From Candidatus Iainarchaeum sp. (GTDB taxonomy: Archaea > Iainarchaeota > Iainarchaeia > Iainarchaeales > JAZDEL01), in contig JAZDEL010000002.1 of assembly GCA_043808785.1 (NCBI GenBank), positions 60,001 to 92,000 on the forward strand: 32,000 nucleotides of DNA, in the 5' to 3' direction. Each line of letters opens with the position of its first letter. Positions within the stretch are counted from its first letter, which is position 1. The translations under genes and the position numbers were made by a program. Shown here in pieces: positions 5,334 to 25,449 of the stretch. A model generated the notes under the pieces. The model made no database searches. It was not told the DNA's origin and saw nothing but the letters and a program-made list of their open reading frames with translations.

Positions 5334-6478
5334 ACCTTCGGCTGCGAAACCATGAGGTAAAGGATGAGATATCCCAGCACCATAGGCATCACAAGTACAT
5401 AAATAATCATTATAAGCAGCGGGTCAAGCTTCATTCCCCCGAACCCGACAGGCGCGTTCGTAATCCCGCCGATTATCGCGATGAACACCGGCGCAACAAT
5501 CGCGCCGACAATGAAAATCACCCCGAAGAAGTTTATCTTCTCCCCGAAATCACGGACCTTCATCCTGAGTTCGAAAGAAACATCCTCCGCAATCGTGCCC
5601 ATTATTGTCGAGAGGTTCCCGCCAGTTGTCATCGCCCTTATGGTGTGCATCAGTGCGCTCCTCAGCGCCTTGGACTGCGTGCGGTTCGCAAAGTTCCTCA
5701 ATGCGTCCTTTGTGTCAACGCCCTCCTCTATTTCATTTATGGTGCGCGCAAACTCCTCGCTCAAAATCCCGTAATCCGAAGTCGCAACAGCCTGCAGCGT
5801 CTTGTAAAGCCCTATTCCCGCGCGCAACTCGCTCGCCATATGCCTCAGCGCAAAGGGCAGTTCCGCGCTTACCGCATCTCCCCTCCTGTTTGCAGCGCTC
5901 TTCGGCAGGAGCAGCATGCCTATTTCCGCGAATATGAAAACCGCAATTCCCCCCGGCAGCGCTATGATTATAGGCACATTCGCAAAAAGCGCTATTGCCG
6001 CGAAAAACACCGCGCCAAGGACAAAAGCAATAAGCCCCACAACCGCGGTTATGGCAAGATACTGCCCTGTGCTGAACTTCATGTTCGCGCTGTAAAGGTA
6101 ATACCCCAGCTGCTGCGTAACCGGAAACTTCTTCAGCAGCACGGTTATCGGTTTCGTTATTCCCTGCAGCGCAAGGTAAATTTTCCCCAGCCGCTGCACC
6201 AGGGGGTTCTTGAACTCCGCAAGCTCCTCGACGCCCTGCACACTCACCTTTGCGGTTTCCCCCTCCGCAATCATCCCCCTTAAATCCCTTAACTTTCCGC
6301 CGACCTGCTCAAACTCCACGCCCTGCTCCACGTACTTCTTCTTCATCTTGCTTACTATGCGCTCCACTTCCTCGACATCAACAGCCTCATCCTGCTTTGC
6401 CTCCGGTTTCTGGAAAGCCTTTGCCCCGGCCTTCTTCTTTTCCTCAACCCTTTTCCTTATCTGGTCAAGACCTGGCAT
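5330..6478 (-). CDS. type II secretion system F-domain platform protein, TadB/EpdJ-like, with N-terminal cytoplasmic extension
   Basis: T2SSF-like core: ELPFALRHMASELRAGIGLYKTLQAVATSDYGILSEEFARTINEIEEGVDTKDAL, plus flanking TM helices. The ATG at 6478 (MPGLDQIRK...) has an upstream GGAAGGGGGA and is preferred to the track start at 6544. Confidence 0.8.
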   Translation of the reverse strand: MPGLDQIRKRVEEKKKAGAKAFQKPEAKQDEAVDVEEVERIVSKMKKKYVEQGVEFEQVGGKLRDLRGMIAEGETAKVSVQGVEELAEFKNPLVQRLGKIYLALQGITKPITVLLKKFPVTQQLGYYLYSANMKFSTGQYLAITAVVGLIAFVLGAVFFAAIALFANVPIIIALPGGIAVFIFAEIGMLLLPKSAANRRGDAVSAELPFALRHMASELRAGIGLYKTLQAVATSDYGILSEEFARTINEIEEGVDTKDALRNFANRTQSKALRSALMHTIRAMTTGGNLSTIMGTIAEDVSFELRMKVRDFGEKINFFGVIFIVGAIVAPVFIAIIGGITNAPVGFGGMKLDPLLIMIIYVLVMPMVLGYLILYLMVSQPKV

Positions 6479-9400
6479 TTTGCTTCCCCCTTCCGTCCAG
6501 GAACGCCTGGCACGCGAGCGAAACTTCGCCCATTGAATGCACATTATTATTGACGAGGTTCTTCAAAAACTTTTCCCTTGCGGCAATTTCCGCCTCAATC
6601 TGCTTTTTCCCCGTTCCTGTGCGTTTCATAATCTCGTTAAGGTATGAAACAGGCGCGGCGCCCCTCTTCATCGTGTCTGTTGCGGGTTCCCATTCATAAA
6701 CCGTCTGCGTTGAAACCTTGCCCTCAAGCGCCCCCCCCACTTCGGCAATTTCCGTAATCCTCCTTATTGTGCCCTTCCTCTTGTCGTGCAGCCTGTGTTC
6801 TATGATTATGAAATCAAGCCCGCTGAGCATCACTTCGGGCACGTTCATCGGAGGAGATGTAACCCTCACAACGGTTTCCTGCGGCGAGTTCGCGTGCACC
6901 GTGCCAAGAGAGTTGCCCACAATGGCGGATTCCGCGACAAAATTGTGCGGTTTCATGCCGCTCCTTTCCTTTTCGCTTACAGTCAAATCGTAAACAAATC
7001 CACTGTAATCGAATTCATGTATGTGCGTAATTCGGTCCCAGAATATTTCGCTTTCCGCAAGCCGTCCGAGCGCATCGGCATTGATGCCCACGGCCTTAAA
7101 TGCATTGGCAAGCTTTTTCACGCTCTCCCTTGACGGCATCCTTTCGCCGAGCCTGAAAAAACGCAGAAGCCCCTGGCTTATTCCCGCCTTTCTCGCAATT
7201 GCCCTCTCGCTTGTGCCCACTTCCCTGGCCTCCGCAATCTTTTCACGGATAAGCGTATTGCACGGGATAACGTCAACATTCGTGTTTGCCTTTACTTTCC
7301 CCGAAATCAGTGCCTCAAGCTTTTTTATTTTTTCGGGATATTTCAGCGGAAACGCAGAGTAAAACTTGCGCACATTTTCAATGCCGTAAACATAAAGCCT
7401 GAACCACTTGCTGTTCGCAGCCCTTGACTCGTATTTCCGTGAAACTATCCCCTCAGTAAGCAGGGCATAGCGCATAAAGTCTATGTAATGCTCGTTGCCG
7501 CAGGTGAAAACGAGCGCATTATTCTCAAGGTCGACATAGCCCTCAGCATCAAAGAAGCCCGCAACAAACTCGTTAAGCGAGGAGCAGAAATGGGCGTTTG
7601 ACATTTTTACATTGCTTCTCGAGCCAGCGGGAATGGCAAACATTTGCTGAGCCCGCCTCGCCCTGCCTATGCCGCTTACCCTCGCCTCAAAGCAATTCTT
7701 TTCAGGTGACGCAGCCCTTACCCCGACATGGGCGTTGCCAAACTCTTTTTTCATGAATTCCGAGAACTGCGGAACTATGCGTTCGTCTTCCGTGAAAAGG
7801 CTGATTCTTCCTTCATTGCATTCGTAGCATTTGCCGTTCTTTTCGCGCAGCCGCTTTGTATCCAATATGTGCCCATCACCGTGCAGCAGGCCGCTCCAAT
7901 ATTCCACTTCAGCCCTGCCCGCGCCCGCATCGCAGTGCAGCCTTGCCGGGGTTGCAACAAACGTCGCTTCCTCAAGATTTTCTGCAGGAACCTGCCCCAC
8001 GTTTCCGCATAGGGTGTAAAAAGGGTGATTGGGCGTAACAATTATTTCAGAGCCGCTTGCAAGCCTTATGTGCCTGACCTTTCCCGAATAAGGCTTTCTC
8101 CTTGCCTCGACAACCTTTTCGCGCTGCATCTTTCCGCTGTCGTTGAGCGAATTTATTTCCCTGCCTTCTGCATCGGCAACTTCCCATTCGCCTTCGTGCC
8201 TGACGCCGCCTTTTTCAATCAGGCTGTCAACAAAGGAACCTATCTCTTCAATGCCGTCAACAAAAGGAATCTTTGTGCCAAAAGTAAGGCAGCCGTCGTG
8301 CCCGGTATTCATCGCCGTGAAAAGCGTGAACGCCTCCGCGTGCCTTACCTCCCCGACAATAACCCTGTCAGGCCTCATCCTGAGCGAGTTCTTCGTGAGT
8401 ATGTCGAGCGTTAACTCCCCCGTGCCTTCAATGCCCGGCGGCCTTGCCTCAAGCCTTATCCAGTGCTTCAATGGGAGATTAAGTTCCGCGGTGTCCTCTA
8501 TGGAAACAATCCTCTCATTTGCGGGAATGAACGCTGCAAGCACGTTCAGGGTTGTGGTTTTTCCGCTTCCCGTTCCGCCTGAAATAAGTATGTTTGCAGG
8601 CTTCACTCCCAAGCCTTCAACAGCAAGCCAGAGGAACGCCGCAACCTCCGTGCTCAAAGTGCCCATGTTTATCAAATCAACTATCGAGTAAGGGTCCTCC
8701 CTGAACTTCCTTATTGTAAGCGAGGAGCCGCTCACGGATGCGGGCGGCATTGTTGCGTTAACCCTGCTGCCGTCCGGCAGCCTTGCATCAAGCAGCGGGG
8801 AGCTCATGTCCATGCGCCTCCCGACCTGCCTTGCGATCCTGTTTATCAGGTCCTGCACCTCTTTCTCGGAATAGAATTCTATATTGCTCTTCATCATCTC
8901 ATATTCCCTGTGGAAAACATAAACAGGTTTGTTCGGCCCTATCACCATTATTTCCTCCAGCTTGTCGTCCTTTATCAGCGGGTCTATTAGCCCGTAACCG
9001 ACCATCTCCCTCACAACAGACTGCGCGTAAAATTCCATCTTGCCTTTCGGAATCTGCATCTCCGTGCTCTCGCGCATTATCTCCATGACTTTTTGGTAGT
9101 AAACATTCTCCCTCTCCTCGAGGTCGCGGATTTTGTACGGGGTTATGCTTATGAGCCTTGTTGCCGCCTCCTTAAGTGTGTTGATTATGCTCTTCTCCGC
9201 GCCGCGCGCCCTCGGCACGGGCGTCCAGTAATAAAGCAGCGGCTCCCCCGCAACCCTGTAAATTTTCGTGTTTCCGTAAGAGGCAATCTCGGTTTTCTTT
9301 GCGCCCTCGAGTTCCTGCTCTATTGTTGACGCGCCCCCCTCTTCAGGCGAGTAAGCCTCGGCCTCCGCAGCGGGTTCCGCGGTTTCTTCCCCTGCGCCTC

Positions 9401-9794
9401 CCCGCATTGTGCCCGCCTCTTCCACCTCATCCTCTTCGGGCACGGTTCTGCTTTCGACAGGCCGCGGTTCGGGCGCCCTCATCTTCGGCGCGCCGACAGC
9501 TGACTTCATCTGCTTAAGTATCTCGCTTTTCATTCCAGTGGTGTCTGCCACCCTGGGTGCGGAAACAGGCACATGCCTCGGCGCAGGATAAGCAGCAGCC
9601 CTTTGCGCAGGTGCAGCAGTAACCCTTGGTGCGGCCGCAACCGCAGCCCTGGCGGGCTGAACAACCGCCTTCCTCTGCAGCATCTCCCTTGGCCTCGGTG
9701 CCGCGCTTTCCGCAATTTCCGCCCCCCCGCTCACTGAGGAACCCTCCTTTTTCTTCTTCACGCGGCTGATAAGGTCCTTGAGGTAGTCCGCCAT
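6465..9794 (-). CDS. type II/IV secretion system ATPase (FlaI/VirB11/KlbA/TadA family, EpdL-like pilus assembly ATPase), intein-containing precursor
   Basis: Walker A is ISGGTGSGKTTTLN. The Asp/Walker B region is RPDRVIVGEVR. The His-box TGHDG|...|SLGTVHANS is split by the intein. The extein is 649 aa, and its first approximately 170 aa are A/P/E-rich low complexity. Confidence 0.9.
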   Translation of the reverse strand: MADYLKDLISRVKKKKEGSSVSGGAEIAESAAPRPREMLQRKAVVQPARAAVAAAPRVTAAPAQRAAAYPAPRHVPVSAPRVADTTGMKSEILKQMKSAVGAPKMRAPEPRPVESRTVPEEDEVEEAGTMRGGAGEETAEPAAEAEAYSPEEGGASTIEQELEGAKKTEIASYGNTKIYRVAGEPLLYYWTPVPRARGAEKSIINTLKEAATRLISITPYKIRDLEERENVYYQKVMEIMRESTEMQIPKGKMEFYAQSVVREMVGYGLIDPLIKDDKLEEIMVIGPNKPVYVFHREYEMMKSNIEFYSEKEVQDLINRIARQVGRRMDMSSPLLDARLPDGSRVNATMPPASVSGSSLTIRKFREDPYSIVDLINMGTLSTEVAAFLWLAVEGLGVKPANILISGGTGSGKTTTLNVLAAFIPANERIVSIEDTAELNLPLKHWIRLEARPPGIEGTGELTLDILTKNSLRMRPDRVIVGEVRHAEAFTLFTAMNTGHDGCLTFGTKIPFVDGIEEIGSFVDSLIEKGGVRHEGEWEVADAEGREINSLNDSGKMQREKVVEARRKPYSGKVRHIRLASGSEIIVTPNHPFYTLCGNVGQVPAENLEEATFVATPARLHCDAGAGRAEVEYWSGLLHGDGHILDTKRLREKNGKCYECNEGRISLFTEDERIVPQFSEFMKKEFGNAHVGVRAASPEKNCFEARVSGIGRARRAQQMFAIPAGSRSNVKMSNAHFCSSLNEFVAGFFDAEGYVDLENNALVFTCGNEHYIDFMRYALLTEGIVSRKYESRAANSKWFRLYVYGIENVRKFYSAFPLKYPEKIKKLEALISGKVKANTNVDVIPCNTLIREKIAEAREVGTSERAIARKAGISQGLLRFFRLGERMPSRESVKKLANAFKAVGINADALGRLAESEIFWDRITHIHEFDYSGFVYDLTVSEKERSGMKPHNFVAESAIVGNSLGTVHANSPQETVVRVTSPPMNVPEVMLSGLDFIIIEHRLHDKRKGTIRRITEIAEVGGALEGKVSTQTVYEWEPATDTMKRGAAPVSYLNEIMKRTGTGKKQIEAEIAAREKFLKNLVNNNVHSMGEVSLACQAFLDGRGKQNARS
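6912..8291 (-). mobile_element. intein (460 aa) with LAGLIDADG homing endonuclease, inserted in the His-box of the pilus ATPase
   Basis: Residues 502-961 of the precursor. Block A is CLTFGT (Cys1). Block B is VTPNHPF (TxxH). The LAGLIDADG motifs are GLLHGDGHI and VAGFFDAEGYV. Block F is FVYDLTV. Block G is HNFVAESAIVGN followed by the +1 Ser. Removing these residues restores the contiguous motif NTGHDG-SLGTVHANS. Confidence 0.85.
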
Positions 9795-9823
9795 CTAACC
9801 ACGCTATACAGAACGCACTTCCC

Positions 9824-9833
9824 TTATTTAAAA
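9824..9833 (-). promoter_or_regulatory. TATA box (TTTTAAATAA on minus strand) of the pilus operon promoter
   Basis: It is centred about 35 nt upstream of ATG 9794, implying a leader of about 10 nt. The sequence is nearly palindromic and could also fire on the plus strand. Confidence 0.45.
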
Positions 9834-9857
9834 GTTTCTTTTGGGTTTTGCGGAAAC

Positions 9858-9905
9858 TGCAAAAACCAAAAAACAAACGGCCCGGTTTGAAGCTTCGCTT
9901 CAAAC
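9858..9905 (-). terminator. hairpin plus oligo-T terminator ending the thrS/repeat-array transcript
   Basis: The stem is GTTTGAAGC (9885-9893) / GCTTCAAAC (9897-9905). On the minus strand it is followed by CCGGGCCGTTTGTTTTTTGGTTTTTG. Confidence 0.45.
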
Positions 9906-10062
9906 GGGCGCATTCGGCTCCCTATTTGGCTTTTGCCAAATGGGCGCATTCGGGCTCACGCCCGAATAGCGCAAGCCGAATAGCGTTGCCAAATGGGCGC
10001 AATTTGGCTTCGCCAAATTCGCGAGCCAAAACGGGCGCAATTGGCTGCCGCCAATTAGCGCG
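9906..10062. repeat. array of four related bulged-hairpin repeat units (one nested inside another) plus a GCCAAAT/ATTTGGC palindrome
   Basis: The 5' halves are GGGCGCATTCGGC (9906-9918), GGGCGCATTCGGGC (9942-9955), GGGCGCAATTTGGC (9995-10008) and GGGCGCAATTGGC (10033-10045). Their 3' partners are GCCGAATAGCG (9975-9985), GCCCGAATAGCGC (9960-9972), GCCAAATTCGCG (10012-10023) and GCCAATTAGCGCG (10050-10062). Each partner carries one extra nucleotide after the AAT(T) run. The hairpin ATTTGGC-TTTT-GCCAAAT lies at 9924-9941. Confidence 0.7.
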
Positions 10063-10152
10063 GTTTGCGTTTGCAACCAGTTTCAGCAGCGCCTTCCTCG
10101 GAACCGCGCAGAACCCGTACTGGCGTTTTTTATTTTTGTTTTTCGCCCGCGC

Positions 10153-12075
10153 TCACTTCTTTTCCGCGATTTCCTTCCTAAGCCCCGAGATAAAATCCGC
10201 AACCTTTACATTGTCCGCAAGCTTCCCTTTCCTGTCCCTCACTGCAAGCGTTTTCTTTTTCTGTTCCTCTTCCCCGACAACAACAATGTAATTGATTTTC
10301 TTCACCTGTGCGTCCCTGACCTTATACCCCACGCTCTCCTGCCTTACATCAAACTCCGCCCTTATTCCGTTCCCGAGCAGTTCGGAAGTGACATCCAGCG
10401 CGTAATCATTGAACCTGTCCGCCACAGCAATAACCTTTGCCTGCACAGGGCTCAGCCATAGCGGGAACGCGCCGGCATAATGCTCGGTCAATATCCCCAC
10501 GAACCTTTCAAGCGACCCAAGAATTGCGCGGTGTATCATAACTGGCACGTGCTCCTTGTCGTCCTTTCCCCAGTAAATTAGCCCGAACTTCTCGGGCATG
10601 GAGAAATCAAGCTGTATTGTGCTAAGCTGCCACTTCCTTCCCAAAGAATCCTTGATATGGAAATCTATCTTCGGCCCGTAGAACGCCCCTCCCCCCTCAT
10701 TCACGCTGAACTTCATCCTCTTCTTTTCCATTGCGGCAATAAGCGCCCTCTCCGCCTTTCCCCAAACCTCGTCACTGCCCATGGAATTCTCGGGCTTTGT
10801 GCTAAGCTCTATTTCATAATTCTTAAACCCGAAAGCCGAGAAAACATCCCCCGCAAGGTCTATGAGCGCCATGACCTCCTGCTCAATCTGCTCCTCGAGC
10901 AGGAAGATGTGCGCATCGTCCTGCGTGAACTTCCTCACGCGGAACATCCCGTTCAGCACCCCGCTCAGTTCGTTCCTGTGTACGACCCCGAACTCGGCAA
11001 GCCTTATGGGAAAATCCCTGTATGAATGCCTCCTGTTTTTGAAAATCAATATCGCACCCGGGCAGTTCATGGGCTTAAGGGCAAATTCGCCCTCATCATT
11101 GTGCACGAAATACATATTGTCCTTGTAGTGCTCCCAGTGCCCGCTCCGCACCCACAGCTCCTTCCTCAGCAGCTGCGGCGTGCTCACCTCCCCGTAGCCG
11201 CGCCTCATTAATTCCGAGCGCATGAACGAGGATATTTCATTCATAAGCACCATTCCGTTCGCGTGCCAGAATATTGCGCCCGGAGATTCGCGCTGCATTG
11301 AAAACAAATCAAGTTCCTTCCCCAATTTTATGTGGTTCCTCTGCTCCGCTTCCTCGCGCATTTTCAAAAATTCCGCAAGCATCTTCTCCTGCGGGAAAGC
11401 GATTCCGTAAATGCGCTGCAGCATCCTGTTCTTCTCGCTGCCGCGCCAGTATGCCCCCGCTGTCTTTAGCAGCTTCACGGCCTTTATCGGTTCCGCGCTC
11501 CGGAGGTGCGGCCCCCTGCACAAATCCTCGAACCCGCCGTGCTTGTACAGGGTTATTTTCCCCGGCCCTAGCTCGTGTATGAGTTCCTGCTTGTATTTAT
11601 TGTTCCTGAAAACCGCAATCGCCTCGTTTTTGCTCACTTCGCGCCTTGTAAAAACCTGCGCCTTCTTCAAAAGTTCCTTCATCTTGCCCTCGATTTTTTC
11701 CATGTCCGCGGGGGTGAATGGCTTATCCACCTCAAAATCGTAATAGAACCCCTCCTCGATTGCGGGCCCTATGGTCGCCTGCGCCTTCGGAAAGAGCGCA
11801 AGCACTGCCTCAGCCATAACATGTGAGGCGCTGTGCCACAGGGTTTCCTTCCCCGCGTTGCTCTCCCAGGTGAGCACCTCGAACTTCGCGTCCTCATTTA
11901 TCGGCGTGTTCAGGTCCGCGGCGGTTCCGTTAACCTTAACAGCAAGCGCGTCCTTCGCCAGCCTCGCGCCTATGCCCTTCGCGATTTCCGCACCCGTAAC
12001 CCCGCGCGCGAACCCCTTCGCGGAACCGTCCGGGAATGTTATTTTTACCTTTTCCTTTCCGCCCACATCAATCAC
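10153..12075 (-). CDS. thrS: threonine--tRNA ligase, full-length bacterial/eukaryotic-type architecture (TGS + N2 editing + class II core + anticodon-binding)
   Basis: TGS domain: ITFPDGSAKGFARGVTGAEIAKGI. Editing motifs: HSASHVMAEAV and LCRGPH. The class II core includes FRVRKFTQDDAHIF and GGGAFYGPKIDF. The start codon is GTG. Confidence 0.95.
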   Translation of the reverse strand: MIDVGGKEKVKITFPDGSAKGFARGVTGAEIAKGIGARLAKDALAVKVNGTAADLNTPINEDAKFEVLTWESNAGKETLWHSASHVMAEAVLALFPKAQATIGPAIEEGFYYDFEVDKPFTPADMEKIEGKMKELLKKAQVFTRREVSKNEAIAVFRNNKYKQELIHELGPGKITLYKHGGFEDLCRGPHLRSAEPIKAVKLLKTAGAYWRGSEKNRMLQRIYGIAFPQEKMLAEFLKMREEAEQRNHIKLGKELDLFSMQRESPGAIFWHANGMVLMNEISSFMRSELMRRGYGEVSTPQLLRKELWVRSGHWEHYKDNMYFVHNDEGEFALKPMNCPGAILIFKNRRHSYRDFPIRLAEFGVVHRNELSGVLNGMFRVRKFTQDDAHIFLLEEQIEQEVMALIDLAGDVFSAFGFKNYEIELSTKPENSMGSDEVWGKAERALIAAMEKKRMKFSVNEGGGAFYGPKIDFHIKDSLGRKWQLSTIQLDFSMPEKFGLIYWGKDDKEHVPVMIHRAILGSLERFVGILTEHYAGAFPLWLSPVQAKVIAVADRFNDYALDVTSELLGNGIRAEFDVRQESVGYKVRDAQVKKINYIVVVGEEEQKKKTLAVRDRKGKLADNVKVADFISGLRKEIAEKK

Positions 12076-18452: not shown

Positions 18453-18601
18453 GATTATCCCTTTTGTGTTGTTGTAAATATAATGGTTATGTTGCGCGCT
18501 GGCTGCGAACCAATTGAGCCATAAAGGACTAAATATCAATAAAATATGTATATTTTGTCCTTTATAGGTAGGTTTTTAACCATTTGGGCGCCAATCGTAT
18601 T

Positions 18602-19828
18602 ATGGCCTCCAAACTCGATGTTTTTCTGGCAGTGTGCCTTTACCCCGGGCTTTCCGCCGCGGGGATAGTAAAAAAAATAGGCAAGCCCCATGCCTCCTAC
18701 AATTCGGCATATCGCCTTCTCCGCGAACTGAAAGCCGAAGGGCTGGCTTCCGAGGAAAATGGCCTCTTCAGCGCTTCAAAAACAAAAAATGCCCGCACCC
18801 TCGCAAGCCTCGTCTACTTCTGCTTCAAGAACGGAATAGATTACAACAAGGCTGTTTCGAAAAAAACAGCAGAGTTCGTGAAGGTTGGGCTGGAGAAAGG
18901 CAAAATAAGCGGCATGCCTTTCGATGCGAAAACCGTCAGGAGGATTATGGGCCAGCTTTCAAGGGGCGGCTTCGCAATAGTGGAATCAAGGAAGCCGTTT
19001 TCATGCAGGATAGTGCCCTCGCACTTCACGCGCCTGCTTGCCGAATATTTTTTCGGCAAAATAAAAGTAAGGTGCCCCTCGCTGCCGGACTGCCTTGATG
19101 AGGCGCTTGTGGATTCGGCGCTCGAAAAGCAGTTTTCCGCATACAAGCGCCTCGAGAAGGAAAAATTCGCGTTCGACGAAACAGGGTTCATTTACGTAAG
19201 CCTCTCCCTCGAGGGAAACACCCTGACCCTTTCCGAAACCGAGAAAATAATAAGGCAGAACATCGCCCCCGCATCAAAGCCTTTCAGGGATGCGCAGCAG
19301 GTGCTCGATTACAAGAAAGCGCTCGACGGGTTTGTTTTTTCCGCGGATGCAATCACGCGCGAATCCGTACTTGAATTCCACAAGGTTGCGATGGGCTCCC
19401 TTGCCGCGGGTGCGGGCAAATTCAGGGCCGGGAATGTCAGGATAAAAGGCAACCCGGAATTCAAAACCCCCGATTGGAGGGAACTCCCCGCGCGGCTCGG
19501 CGATTTTTTCAGCGGCGCAAATGCCCCGCAGGGGAAAAAGGCTTCGGCTGCGGCAATCGTGGCGCGCGCGGCATTTTTGCACAACGAATTCCAGCGCATA
19601 CACCCTTTCATAGACGGGAACAGCAGGACTGCAAGGGCAATCTTCCTCAAGGCGCTGGCAATGAACGGCTTCCCGCCAATAAAACTGCAGGTCGGCTTTT
19701 CAGACCAATATATGGCTCTCACAAAACTCAGCAAGGAGAGGGACGACAAAAAATTCGCCCTCCTGATGAAGCAGATTGCTCTGGAAAACCTGAAGCATCT
19801 CGCGAGGAAGATGGAATACGGGTTCTAA
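18602..19828 (+). CDS. Fic-domain protein with N-terminal winged-HTH and an internal inhibitory motif (class II Fic)
   Basis: The Fic motif is HPFIDGNSRTAR (canonical HxFx[DE]GNGRxxR with G to S). The upstream SLSLEG matches the [ST]xxxE[GN] inhibitory helix motif. The N-terminal wHTH-like segment is GIVKKIGKPHASYNSAYRLLRELKAEGL. The ATG at 18602 is preferred to the TTG at 18584. Confidence 0.8.
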   Translation: MASKLDVFLAVCLYPGLSAAGIVKKIGKPHASYNSAYRLLRELKAEGLASEENGLFSASKTKNARTLASLVYFCFKNGIDYNKAVSKKTAEFVKVGLEKGKISGMPFDAKTVRRIMGQLSRGGFAIVESRKPFSCRIVPSHFTRLLAEYFFGKIKVRCPSLPDCLDEALVDSALEKQFSAYKRLEKEKFAFDETGFIYVSLSLEGNTLTLSETEKIIRQNIAPASKPFRDAQQVLDYKKALDGFVFSADAITRESVLEFHKVAMGSLAAGAGKFRAGNVRIKGNPEFKTPDWRELPARLGDFFSGANAPQGKKASAAAIVARAAFLHNEFQRIHPFIDGNSRTARAIFLKALAMNGFPPIKLQVGFSDQYMALTKLSKERDDKKFALLMKQIALENLKHLARKMEYGF

Positions 19829-19862: not shown

Positions 19863-21599
19863 TCACGCCCCGCTCACAACCATCCCCACTCCCTTTTCAA
19901 GCAGTTCCCCTGCGGTGCGCATGTTTTGCGCGCCAAGGGTGAAATTGTAGCGCTCCCTGATAATTTTGCTCCCGAGGAACTTTTCCCTTTCTTCCGCGCC
20001 CAAAGCATGGAACTCGTATCCGTGCTTCCTCTTATTCTGCGCATTGAACCTTATTATCCCGCGGTCGTTGCAGAATTCGCATATTTCCCATTCGGGAAGC
20101 GCATCCGCGATTTCCTGCAGGGCTTTTTCGGCAAGCCTCGCGCTTTTGCCCTTTGCAAGCATCTCGCACGACTCAAAAAACCCAAACAAACCGAGTACGG
20201 GTTTAAGTTCTTCATGGTTAATTCCCGCCTTTTTCAGTGCCGAGTTTCCCTGCAGGATTTTCCCCTTCAGTTCCCCCAGCTCGTGCAGAACCTTGAGCCT
20301 TTCCCCGAGCGAGGAGAGGAAGCGCTGCCCGTCCTTTGCCTCGAGCGCAAGTTTCGGCATGTTAATGCCTGCAAGCATGCTTATCCCGCGCCCGGAGCGC
20401 AAAAACAAACCCCCATTAAGCGCGGCTGGTTTTGTTTCCCCGTAGTTAAGGAAGGAAATGTTCCGCTCCCCAAGCACCTTGCGCTCAAGCAGGCCGAGCT
20501 TGTATTTTGTGTCAAGCAGAATGCAGAAGCGCAGGGCAGCGGCGGATTCGCGCACAAGCGAATTCGCGAATTCAATCGCGCTTTCGGAATGCGCCCCGTA
20601 CTTCTCAAGTTCGCCCTCCAAATAAAGGGTTGCGCTGTGCGCAGGCAGTTCGCACGCGGGCAGTTCCTTGCACTGCACACATTTCATCTGCAGGAAGAAC
20701 AGCCGAGCGATTTCCGCAAATCTCTTTCTCTGCATTTTTTCAAGGAGAGGGGAAAGGGAGGCGTTCACCGAATCCGCGCAGACAGGGAGGGTAATAAGGC
20801 GGTTCAGCCATGCAATTTCCGCAGCAAGCAGGGCGAGTGCCTCCTCAGCGCTCCCGCACTCTGCGGGCGGGGCAAAGAACTTCGCATATGCGTAAGGCTT
20901 CGAGGCAAAATCGTGCACGGCGCAAATGTGCATGTCTCCTGAAAAATGCAGTTCCCTCGCGGGGGAGGGGATTACTTTCGCCCATGCGTATTCCCGCATT
21001 GCTTCGCGCCCGAATTTTTCCGCGGCATCATGTGCACTGCCTGCCGCGGAATTTTCCGCGCCCTGCGAAACCGCAGCCGCAATATCGTGCACCGGCACAC
21101 CTAACCTCGCATAATTGCAGTACGCATCTTCATAACCGAGCGCGAGCAGTTTTGCATTAACCAGATTGCGTATGAGCGCGGTATTCAGGTATTTTATCTT
21201 CATCTCCTTGAGCTCGTCCTCCACCTCGTTGCTTATCCTCTCCGCCAAGCTCCTGCTCAGCGCGGTTTCCTTGAGCAGCGATTTCGTTATGTTTCCGCGG
21301 TCGAAACCCTCCAAGGTTTCCGCGCTGGTGTGCACGCGCATCTCCCCGAACCTTGCGAACTCCCTTGCAGCTTCAGGGTTTGACTTGCGCAGCTCCTCGA
21401 GTGCAAGGGAGCGCATTTCCGCGATTGAAAGCGCCCCCGTCCCCGCAGCCTCGCGCCCGCCGGAAACTTGAGTGCCCTCTGCAGATGACAGCACCTTGAC
21501 AACGCGCATCACTTCCCATTTTGTTGCGCCCGCCTTTGTGCACTCCGCGGCAACCTTTTCAACGGACGATTTCAGGGGCTTCTGGCTTTCGGAAGGCAT
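19863..21599 (-). CDS. ATP-cone domain protein with class III ribonucleotide reductase (NrdD)-like body, apparently lacking the C-terminal Zn-ribbon/glycyl-radical domain
   Basis: A full ATP-cone is present: MRVHTSAETLEGFDRGNITKSLLKETALSRSLAERISNEVEDELKEMKIKYLNTALIRNLVNAKLLALGYEDAYCNYARL. A partial second cone precedes it. GINMPKLALEA resembles the NrdD INLPRIA segment. No RVxGY-type terminus is present. The assignment rests on remembered motifs only. Confidence 0.55.
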   Translation of the reverse strand: MPSESQKPLKSSVEKVAAECTKAGATKWEVMRVVKVLSSAEGTQVSGGREAAGTGALSIAEMRSLALEELRKSNPEAAREFARFGEMRVHTSAETLEGFDRGNITKSLLKETALSRSLAERISNEVEDELKEMKIKYLNTALIRNLVNAKLLALGYEDAYCNYARLGVPVHDIAAAVSQGAENSAAGSAHDAAEKFGREAMREYAWAKVIPSPARELHFSGDMHICAVHDFASKPYAYAKFFAPPAECGSAEEALALLAAEIAWLNRLITLPVCADSVNASLSPLLEKMQRKRFAEIARLFFLQMKCVQCKELPACELPAHSATLYLEGELEKYGAHSESAIEFANSLVRESAAALRFCILLDTKYKLGLLERKVLGERNISFLNYGETKPAALNGGLFLRSGRGISMLAGINMPKLALEAKDGQRFLSSLGERLKVLHELGELKGKILQGNSALKKAGINHEELKPVLGLFGFFESCEMLAKGKSARLAEKALQEIADALPEWEICEFCNDRGIIRFNAQNKRKHGYEFHALGAEEREKFLGSKIIRERYNFTLGAQNMRTAGELLEKGVGMVVSGA

Positions 21600-21640: not shown

Positions 21641-21727
21641 CGGTTTAAAAACCGAAAAACCCCATTTGGCTGCCCGATTTTGCCTTGCGGCAAAATGGGC
21701 GCAATTGGGCTCAAGCCGAATAGCGCC
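21641..21727. repeat. second copy of the hairpin-repeat element (related to 9858-9972) in the divergent nrdD-like/lrp promoter region
   Basis: AAAAACCGAAAAAC-CCCATTTGGC...GATTTTGCC-TTGC-GGCAAAAT-GGGCGCAATTGGGC-TCA-AGCCGAATAGCGCC. Compare locus 1: AAAAACCAAAAAAC...CCCTATTTGGC-TTTT-GCCAAAT-GGGCGCATTCGGGC-TCAC-GCCCGAATAGCGC. Confidence 0.6.
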
Positions 21728-21744
21728 GCTTTAGAAAAGCGAAC

Positions 21745-21755
21745 TTTTTATATAT
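21745..21755 (+). promoter_or_regulatory. TATA box (TTTTTATATAT) of the lrp promoter, leaderless-type spacing
   Basis: It is centred about 28 nt upstream of ATG 21778. Confidence 0.4.
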
Positions 21756-21777: not shown

Positions 21778-22254
21778 ATGGCGGATGTAACCCTTGATAA
21801 AATCGACCATAAGATAATCCGCGTTTTGCTTGAAGATGGCAGGGCGCCTTTCAGCCAGATTGCGAAGGAAGTAGCGCTAACGGACGTGGCGATAAAAAAG
21901 CGCCTCGACAGGCTGAAGCGCAAGGGCGTCGTGAATTCAATCACCGCGGACCTGAACCTCAAGGTGCTCGGGTATGAAAACCCGATATATGTGCAGATAC
22001 GCTCCGAAATCGGGAAGAACAAGGACCTTGTAAAGCGCCTGCACGAGATGGATTTTGTTGTTGAATTGAACCAGGTGCTCGGGGAGTACAACCTTTTCGC
22101 GAAACTGGTTGTGCCCGATTTGGAAAGCGCGGAAAAGTTCATTGAAAAGCTCGGCGTCCTTGATGGCGTGCTGGACATAAAAACCTCCATGGTTTTGCGC
22201 GAACTGAAGAAGTCTAACGCGCTTCCCACGCACTCGCTGCAGAAGACGCTCTGA
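21778..22254 (+). CDS. lrp: Lrp/AsnC family transcriptional regulator
   Basis: The HTH_AsnC segment is LDKIDHKIIRVLLEDGRAPFSQIAKEVALTDVAIKKRLDRLKRKGVV. A RAM/AsnC_trans_reg-like C-terminal half follows. Confidence 0.9.
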   Translation: MADVTLDKIDHKIIRVLLEDGRAPFSQIAKEVALTDVAIKKRLDRLKRKGVVNSITADLNLKVLGYENPIYVQIRSEIGKNKDLVKRLHEMDFVVELNQVLGEYNLFAKLVVPDLESAEKFIEKLGVLDGVLDIKTSMVLRELKKSNALPTHSLQKTL

Positions 22255-25209: not shown

Positions 25210-25449
25210 GCGGCCGCAAAGGCGAAACTCAGGGCGCGTTTTTCAGGGAGTGGGGCCGAATATTTTCTTATGACAAATAGTCTGGTGAGCCCGGCCCCTT
25301 CCCCAAGTCTTCACTTCTTAGGATTGGATCCCCCATTATTTGCATATATATTACAGCCTAGCCTTTATTTAATAATTCAGATATTTTTGGTGTGCCAAAA
25401 GGGCACAATGTTTTTATTATGATGGCATGGCATAATATTTGGGATTGGG

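Follow-up and report, generated by a model that had tools for sequence, protein, structure and literature searches.

In the 32,000-nt stretch of DNA from Candidatus Iainarchaeum sp. analysed here (hereafter, the window), the gap between thrS, which encodes threonyl-tRNA synthetase (ThrRS), and the ATPase gene of an archaeal type IV pilus operon holds a 184-bp array of bulged hairpins on the plus strand (9879-10062). We consider it probable, at roughly two chances in three, that this array is a pile-up of a short, non-coding and non-autonomous mobile repeat that is inserted into intergenic DNA and mobilised in trans, similar to repetitive extragenic palindromes (REPs) and the REP doublets forming hairpins (REPINs), or to palindrome-associated transposable elements (PATEs). 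The evidence is a repeat family dispersed over two genomes, the presence or absence of its copies at syntenic sites, the insertion of units into hairpin loops, a clean insertion site showing no target duplication, and stems that covary around an unpaired base of fixed position.

Structure of the repeat unit and the array

The repeat unit is approximately 52 nt long and forms a double hairpin, H1-H2, in which one bulged hairpin type (X) appears twice, as mirror images. In type X, a G/C clamp is followed by A(A/T)T(T)(Y)GGC, a loop of 3-5 nt, GCC(R)(A)A(A/T)T, a single unpaired base and the clamp once more. H1 was represented as CCC-T-ATTT(T)GGC..GCCAAA(A)T-GGG and H2 as GCGC-AATTGGC..GCCAATT-A-GCGC, and the two were joined at GGGCGC in all five units. 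Because the unpaired base is located on the 5' arm in H1 and on the 3' arm in H2, our covariance model of the hairpin, R1, matches them on opposite strands.

In the array, unit 1 has an H1-type hairpin at 9880-9909 (GCCC-G-GTTTGAAGC ttc GCTTCAAAC-GGGC), whose 5' arm carries the bulge; R1 matched it in mirror orientation with 33.9 bits (E = 3e-5), this hairpin being among the 12 sequences from which R1 was built. The H2-type hairpin of unit 1 is split. Its 5' arm GCGCATTCGGC (9908-9918) and its 3' arm GCCGAAT-A-GCG (9975-9985) paired around 9920-9972 in the minimum-energy fold of the gap. The intervening sequence (9920-9972) is a complete nested H1-H2 unit of approximately 52-53 nt, with H1 at 9920-9944 and H2 at 9944-9972 (GCGCATTCGGGC tcac GCCCGAAT-A-GCGC), which R1 matched with 36.7 and 42.2 bits and which folded as single-stranded DNA with -20.8 kcal/mol (z score, -6.5). 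The palindrome ATTTGGC-TTTT-GCCAAAT is the H1 of this nested unit; it carries a bulged T on the 5' arm and mirrors the hairpin type of H2.

Unit 3 (9988-10023; R1, 35.4 bits; direct-repeat family D2) consists of an orphan H1 3' arm GCCAAATGGG and an H2 hairpin at 9997-10023 (GCGCAATTTGGC ttc GCCAAATT-C-GCG). Likewise, unit 4 (10025-10061; R1, 42 bits) consists of an orphan H1 3' arm GCCAAAACGGG and an H2 hairpin at 10035-10061 (GCGCAATTGGC tgcc GCCAATT-A-GCGC). Partial tandem duplication is the probable origin of units 3 and 4, in which the H1 5' arm is missing; the spacings among the direct repeats of the array were 53 and 38 bp. Every H2-type copy of the array has a stem of 11-13 bp and a single unpaired base on the 3' arm, as the preliminary description of this DNA had read from the sequence, and the hairpins lie at the coordinates given there.

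The 358-bp gap (9795-10152) had also been described as almost entirely self-complementary. Indeed, its folding energies were -154 and -146 kcal/mol as compared with -125 and -113 kcal/mol for shuffled sequences, with z scores of -4.96 (minus strand) and -5.40 (plus strand), and none of 100 shuffles equalled the observed value. The RNA fold of the core (9855-10075) gave a z score of -6.3. The motif GGGCGCAWT occurred 9 times in the window against 1.8 expected, a five-fold excess. GCCAAAT/ATTTGGC half-sites had been counted about 8 times in 140 bp; exact sites numbered 5 within the array, a figure of about 8 was reached only when variants were counted, and the 8 exact sites in the window as a whole were no excess over chance. 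No credible open reading frame (ORF) had been seen in the gap. A 147-aa ORF runs across the array, and a coding reading of it was rejected because it had no Pfam match and the region is missing in the relatives.

A dispersed repeat family in two genomes

The repeat unit was not confined to the gap. A second locus, 11.6 kb from the array, was observed as a 66-bp insert at 21660-21725 (plus strand) between the divergent genes for an ATP-cone protein (minus strand) and an Lrp/AsnC protein (plus strand). An orphan arm CCCCATTTGGC is accompanied there by an H1-type hairpin (21672-21700) and an H2-type one (21699-21726), which R1 matched with 43 and 34.3 bits. When R1 was run with its filters off, nothing else rose above noise in the window or in 42 kb of the closest relative, and the scores fell from 33.9 to 17.7 bits with no value between.

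A scan of 185,579 species genomes with a strict H2 pattern gave 30 matches: 28 were chance matches in GC-rich bacteria, and 2 fell in one metagenome-assembled genome (MAG), 'Candidatus Iainarchaeum archaeon' JBDRDO01. Both of its matched contigs bear a full H1-H2 unit. R1 found a further copy, which the search pattern would miss, in additional DNA of the same organism. The three copies of this genome (JBDRDO01/SRR27458548) lie at 6831-6924 of related locus L009, at 4216-4271 of L019 and at 5858-5913 of L079/L080, and are non-syntenic with those of the window. Together with the two loci of the window, five loci are known. All five are intergenic, and no coding signal was detected across them. 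The density was 2 loci in the 32-kb window; in the other genome, some 30 kb of unselected DNA held 1 locus.

The units of the two genomes shared 78% mean column identity (alignment A3), and single hairpins were nearly or entirely identical between them (35/38 for unit 4 against L009 6850-6886, and 26/26). The identity of ThrRS and SecY-type proteins between the two lineages was 72-78% (72% for ThrRS). Outside these genomes, all 26 matches in metagenomes were due to chance or unrelated coding sequence; one of the matched loci (L048), a perfect palindrome with no bulge, was matched only because the search pattern is itself palindromic. Five scans of viral contigs gave chance matches only, some of them within genes, and blastn of the array against plasmids and phages gave no match.

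These results bear on the simplest explanation, that a terminator region was duplicated in place or that palindromes accumulated by chance. Units 3 and 4 do resemble partial tandem duplications. However, the unit recurs at a distance of 11.6 kb and, in another genome, at three unrelated loci, and the folding goes far beyond that of shuffled sequence. As a complete explanation the local event is refuted by the copies elsewhere, and we regard it as hardly credible in any form. The preliminary description had made its proposal depend on further copies or covariation; copies in two genomes and compensated changes in 8 of 12 stem pairs, described below, were found.

Presence and absence of copies at syntenic sites

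The order thrS-ATPase was kept in three relatives, where the gap was short compared with 358 bp and the array was absent: 171 bp in SRR22387960 (loci L058 and L078; 89% ThrRS identity), 60 bp in JBDRDO01/JAHJAD01/SRR27458548 (72%) and 86 bp in SRR22388062 (67%). Pairwise alignment with L058, together with the junction sequences, delimited the array. The flanks were nearly identical, including the T-tracts and the promoter elements, and the two differed by 184 bp (9879-10062) in place of AGCAT. AGCAT is the loop of a small hairpin of L058, CAAAC-AGCAT-GTTTG, and the array occupies that loop; the left half CAAAC (9874-9878) and the right half GTTTG (10063-10067) stand on either side of the array and are intact in L058.

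At the second locus of the window, the closest relative (L078) has the exact empty site CCGAAAAA/GCGCTTTAG (AAAAA/GCGCTTTAG), into which the 66 bp were added with no target duplication. The site is also empty in the more distant genome (L079). Conversely, the 3' ends of topA and secY are each followed by a unit in the JBDRDO01-type genome only, and those of the window and of the 89% relative have none. Copies were thus gained or lost at four syntenic sites. As judged from these alignments, the array is an insertion, not a conserved feature of the thrS-ATPase locus.

The secY site showed a further peculiarity. The end of secY, comprising its last 12 codons and the stop codon, occurs twice, once on each side of the inserted unit (L019, 4119-4157 and 4287-4325). 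The two copies, each encoding MEMHPVLGRLLG*, differ at 7 positions, all of them synonymous, which suggests that a secY 3' end from another lineage came in with the inserted segment.

Insertion into hairpin loops

The preliminary description had noted that one copy looked as if it was inserted into the loop of another. This view was strongly supported by the copies of the second genome. The split hairpin of the array reads GCGCATTCGGC-TC[52 nt]AA-GCCGAATAGCG, in which the 52 nt are the complete H1-H2 unit, and with its loop remnants it is identical at 26 of 26 positions to the intact GCGCATTCGGC-TCAA-GCCGAATAGCG at L009 6896-6921. In L009 itself, an H1-type hairpin, GCGC-T-ATTTTGCC / GGCAAAAT-GCGC, is split by another complete unit. 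The nest of L009 is enclosed by an outer stem GGGCTGCC/GGCAGCCC, and the same stem occurs as a simple intact hairpin in L019. Hairpin loops have thus been entered at least three times independently, and probably four times.

Conservation of structure

Covariation was evaluated on an alignment (A2) of 12 hairpins from three genomic sources, all placed in a single orientation. Stem cells were paired in 96.4%, a percentage that is inflated because the aligned hairpins were picked for being hairpins, as compared with 23-42% when the partners were slid by 1-3 columns. The diversity of the compensatory pairs is not inflated in this way: 8 of the 12 stem pairs had changes on both sides, and none of 500 shuffles reached the observed covariation score. 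The compensated arms included AATTGGC, ATTCGG(G)C, A(A)TTTGGC, ATTTTGCC and GTTTGAAGC, and the position of the unpaired base was constant across all 12 hairpins. As single-stranded DNA, the units folded with z scores of -3.6 to -6.5. Structure, not sequence, is what is kept.

An element whose structure is kept and whose hairpins carry an extrahelical base resembles an integron attC-like site or another target of a site-specific recombinase that recognises folded single strands, and the imperfection of the hairpins agrees with such a target. Nevertheless, the core sites RYYYAAC/GTTRRRY were absent by eye from the element sequences, the hairpins are contiguous with no cassettes between them, and no tyrosine recombinase is encoded in the window or beside the copies at the other loci. 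The hairpins are also about 30 nt long, and attC sites are usually at least 57 nt. We consider this explanation extremely improbable.

Transcription of thrS and the pilus operon

Since thrS (10153-12075) and the ATPase gene (6465-9794) are both on the minus strand, the array lies in the 3' region of thrS and upstream of the ATPase promoter. On the minus strand, a B recognition element and TATA box (BRE/TATA), AAAGAAAC-TTTTAAATAA at 9824-9841, lie 29 nt before the ATG at 9794 and are identical in L058; by the archaeal consensus they are the predicted promoter of the ATPase operon. The T5 and T6 tracts GTTTGTTTTTTGGTTTTTG (9861-9873, minus strand) are conserved in the closest relative, which has no array, and are the probable transcription stop of thrS. 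Archaeal termination requires oligo-T alone. The distance between the thrS stop codon and the array is at least 91 nt, and this interval contains no T-run on the minus strand; the conserved T6/T5 comes after the array. Hence, the array is probably transcribed within the thrS 3' untranslated region (UTR). Lying upstream of both the conserved oligo-T stop and an intact ATPase promoter, it is probably a passenger there.

The preliminary description had proposed a clean terminator hairpin with a T-tract in the thrS 3' UTR. The conserved T6/T5 and the probable 3'-UTR location of the array agree with this proposal, and a minus-strand hairpin (9909-9880) followed by T6/T5 does look like an intrinsic terminator. 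However, the hairpin is itself an H1-type member of the family, and since the T-tract is conserved in a relative with a different and smaller hairpin, the hairpin at 9880-9909 is not the conserved part. A divergent plus-strand RNA bracketed by a TATA at 9824-9833, which had been thought equally possible, is not favoured because the TATA/BRE points to the ATPase gene.

It could then be asked whether the repeat is a functional RNA module of 3' UTRs that has spread, its hairpins terminating or stabilising the thrS, secY and topA transcripts or insulating thrS from the pilus operon. In agreement with such a function, four of the five loci begin 10-90 nt past a stop codon, the array stands directly before a T-tract and folds strongly as RNA, and the relative lacking the array has a small hairpin in the same spot. 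The copies are, however, antisense to the upstream gene at thrS and topA and sense at secY and the L009 gene, so that the bulges of the RNAs would differ; one copy is flanked on both sides by promoters that diverge from it, the relatives' versions of these genes manage with no element, oligo-T suffices for termination as stated above, and no Rfam family was matched. We consider this module unlikely. The hairpins of the array may incidentally protect the thrS 3' end, but because the family occurs in both orientations to upstream genes and has one copy between divergent promoters, such a stabilising or insulating side-effect is not the reason for its existence.

For the same reasons, together with the absence of the array from the gap of three relatives, a discrete and conserved structured noncoding RNA, one of the three readings offered in the preliminary description, was not upheld. 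Rfam gave no match at gathering thresholds in the whole window. In E-value mode on the gap, no match came near the threshold of its family (best E-value, 1.7; best score, 20 bits); the match to naRNA4 (16 bits, E = 2.3) was noise. A scan for tRNA and tmRNA found none. CRISPR arrays, H/ACA or C/D small RNAs, K-turns and ORB/parS-like sites were set aside, as the spacing is irregular, the box motifs are absent and the stems covary.

Relation to regulators

The second of the three readings was an array of regulator-binding sites, such as GCCAAAT/ATTTGGC palindromes through which the Lrp/AsnC protein encoded at 21778-22254 would control the pilus operon and its own gene. Both loci of the window are indeed upstream of promoters, one of them directly upstream of the Lrp/AsnC gene, and the half-sites are arranged as dyads. 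The promoters of the Lrp and ATPase genes in relatives are nevertheless conserved with no element, and other copies follow secY and topA or lie between convergent genes. Moreover, the arms change in compensation (AATTGGC, ATTCGGC, ATTTTGCC, GTTTGAAGC), no single half-site is kept, and a fixed asymmetric bulge would be meaningless in a duplex operator. As a conserved feature, the operator array was not sustained, and we judge it very unlikely; a regulator may have co-opted the element in a particular lineage. The third reading, a REP/MITE-like element (MITE, miniature inverted-repeat transposable element), was the part that stood, given the copies at 21660-21725 and in the second genome and the syntenic gain or loss.

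Just upstream of the Lrp/AsnC TATA, a small palindrome GCTTTAGAAAAGC (21728-21745) is conserved in three genomes (window, L078 and L079). It would be a more plausible autoregulatory operator than the inserted repeat.

Flanking genes and other observations

The window is archaeal by content, encoding Nre, the RFC small subunit and an archaeal prepilin peptidase with an Arc_PepC domain (Pfam). ThrRS and the ATP-cone protein matched NCBI proteins of a 'Candidatus Diapherotrites archaeon' MAG with 100% identity. The ThrRS of this DPANN archaeon has Pfam domains tRNA-synt_2b, HGTP_anticodon, tRNA_SAD and TGS; with TGS and tRNA_SAD at the N-terminus, it shows the bacterial-type architecture, and its homologues include bacterial enzymes at about 55% identity, for example that of Tepidanaerobacter.

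The ATPase (T2SSE/PilB-like, 1109 aa) heads the pilus operon, and it is followed by two T2SSF genes and the prepilin peptidase, as identified by Pfam; the gene order is the same in relatives. It contains an intein with LAGLIDADG and HTH_3 domains, which is also present in the ATPases of the 89% and 72% relatives (1077-1106 aa). The ATPase of the 67% relative (L062, 2226-4070) is 614 aa long and has no intein.

The ATP-cone protein (19863-21599, 578 aa) has a faint, sub-threshold match to NrdD. Homologues were very few, numbering six at E < 1e-30 among 5.8 billion proteins, one of them labelled 'transposase' by JGI. A Fic/DOC-domain protein of 414 aa is encoded at 18584-19828 amid housekeeping genes.

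Between the topA stop codon and the next gene, a block of about 60 nt, AATGGGGGATCCAATCCTAAGAAGTGAAGACTTGGGGAAGGGGCCGGGCTCACCAGA, hardly varied among three genomes (window, 25285-25350, minus strand; L078, 6545-6605; L079, 5730-5790) whose proteins are only 50-78% identical. The block comes after a TATA-like TTATTAAATAAAGG, has no Rfam match and is predicted to form a minus-strand hairpin with G-U-type changes only. Since a 1-nt indel breaks its small ORF, the block is non-coding, and it is a candidate small RNA or regulatory leader.

Discussion

A mobile repeat of the REP/REPIN or PATE kind would explain the array as follows. Units would be added to intergenic DNA with no target duplication, repeatedly into the loops of existing hairpins. 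The nesting would follow from hits both on the native hairpin downstream of thrS and on copies of the element already in place. Most likely, the units would be mobilised in trans as folded single-stranded DNA, acted on by a structure-specific enzyme whose gene lies elsewhere in the genome; the leading candidate for this enzyme is an HUH/Y1 transposase of the IS200/IS605 or RAYT (REP-associated tyrosine transposase) type. The traits of the family named at the outset would be typical of elements processed in this way, such as IS200/IS605 ends, the PATEs that stem from them and the REP/REPIN elements with RAYT. Partial tandem duplication would afterwards have added units 3 and 4.

Several points weigh against this explanation, the selection of the aligned hairpins mentioned above being one. 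No transposase, integrase or HUH protein was found in the window or beside the copies at the other loci. The palindromes of PATEs match those of a resident IS605-type transposon (tnpA/tnpB), and the window and the related loci examined contained no such parent. RAYTs are not reported in Archaea (PMC6006769). Bacterial REPs carry a conserved GTAG or CGTC at one end of the palindrome; the tetranucleotides GTAG/CTAC and CGTC/GACG were absent in or beside both elements of the window and only scattered and inconsistent at the other loci, and no shared target oligonucleotide was evident at the junctions. The palindromes at the ends of IS200/IS605 elements and in PATEs are direct repeats, whereas those of our unit are mirror images with the bulge on opposite arms. 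Finally, the 42 kb of the closest relative held no copy, the strict pattern matched only 2 contigs in the whole JBDRDO01 MAG, and, with five known loci, the copy number may be low.

A bolder proposal would be that the repeat represents the first REPIN/RAYT-like system in Archaea, in which a dedicated and possibly domesticated single-stranded-DNA transposase of Diapherotrites recognises a bulged hairpin and pastes the ~52-nt units specifically into the loops of other hairpins, and the element stays nearly unchanged across genera through co-evolution with that enzyme. This is conceivable, though we hold it to be doubtful.

DPANN genomes are very small and gene-dense, and short dispersed repeats have hardly been described there; the papers searched made no mention of such repeats in Diapherotrites. 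Near identity of a hairpin repeat across genomes with only 72-78% identical housekeeping proteins points to an unrecognised structure-specific mobilising or binding protein, or to recent DNA exchange. Repeated insertion into loops with no target duplication is, in turn, a testable signature of a single-stranded-DNA mechanism. For annotation, the array illustrates that a long 'structured' gap between genes of such a MAG may be made up of stacked elements, and is then not to be taken for a riboswitch-like RNA or an operator array.

Comparison with known systems

Among known repeats, the bacterial REPs, REPINs and bacterial interspersed mosaic elements (BIMEs), which RAYT mobilises, share with our unit the imperfect palindromes of about 30 nt, the G/C-rich feet, the conserved unpaired base and the strictly extragenic location (PMC2817692, PMC3116915, PMC3733652). 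The hairpins of the present family, about 30 nt long and intergenic at all five loci, fall within the 20-40 bp of REPs. REPs occur in inverted pairs and clusters and in sub-families with complementary stem changes (PMC2817692, PMC3733652). The H1/H2 mirror pair corresponds to a REPIN, with two inverted REPs at a fixed short distance in all five units; the clustering corresponds to a BIME, and copies are present or absent between relatives in both cases. In contrast, REPs typically exceed 100 copies per genome and the copy number here appears low. REP-RAYT systems have a single-copy gene for RAYT (Y1 HUH), usually flanked by REPs; in the 32-kb window and about 150 kb of related loci there was no RAYT. 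The present host is, furthermore, a DPANN archaeon, and the units are nested in each other's loops.

The 52-bp 'terminal-only' PATEs of Haloquadratum, derived from IS605-type transposons, have two near-terminal palindromes and no target duplication, and are apparently mobile and strain-specific (PMC3119063). Our unit is likewise archaeal and about 52 bp long, starts and ends with hairpins, and lacks both the terminal inverted repeats of MITE type and a target duplication. Strain-specific insertions, frequently inside other mobile elements, are another feature of these haloarchaeal (IS200/IS1341) PATEs (PMC3119063) that recurs here. The lineage differs, being Diapherotrites/Iainarchaeota in the present case.

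MITEs, for example those of Sulfolobus and Haloquadratum, are also short, non-coding and mobilised in trans. They differ in having transposon-related terminal inverted repeats and usually target duplications (PMC3119063); no target duplication was found at the clean site 2, and at site 1 the loop AGCAT was replaced. From attC sites, the array is distinguished by the lack of core sites, of cassettes and, in the window, of a recombinase. The hairpin elements of fungal and sponge mitochondria are short single, double or triple hairpins that invade the intergenic DNA of a compact genome, with conserved stems and variable loops (PMC2800124). They are organellar, unrelated in sequence and have no known enzyme, so that this resemblance is analogous only. 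Taken together, short palindromic extragenic mobile repeats now extend to a DPANN archaeon, and the mirror double hairpin, the landing in loops and the conservation across genera are what is unusual about them.

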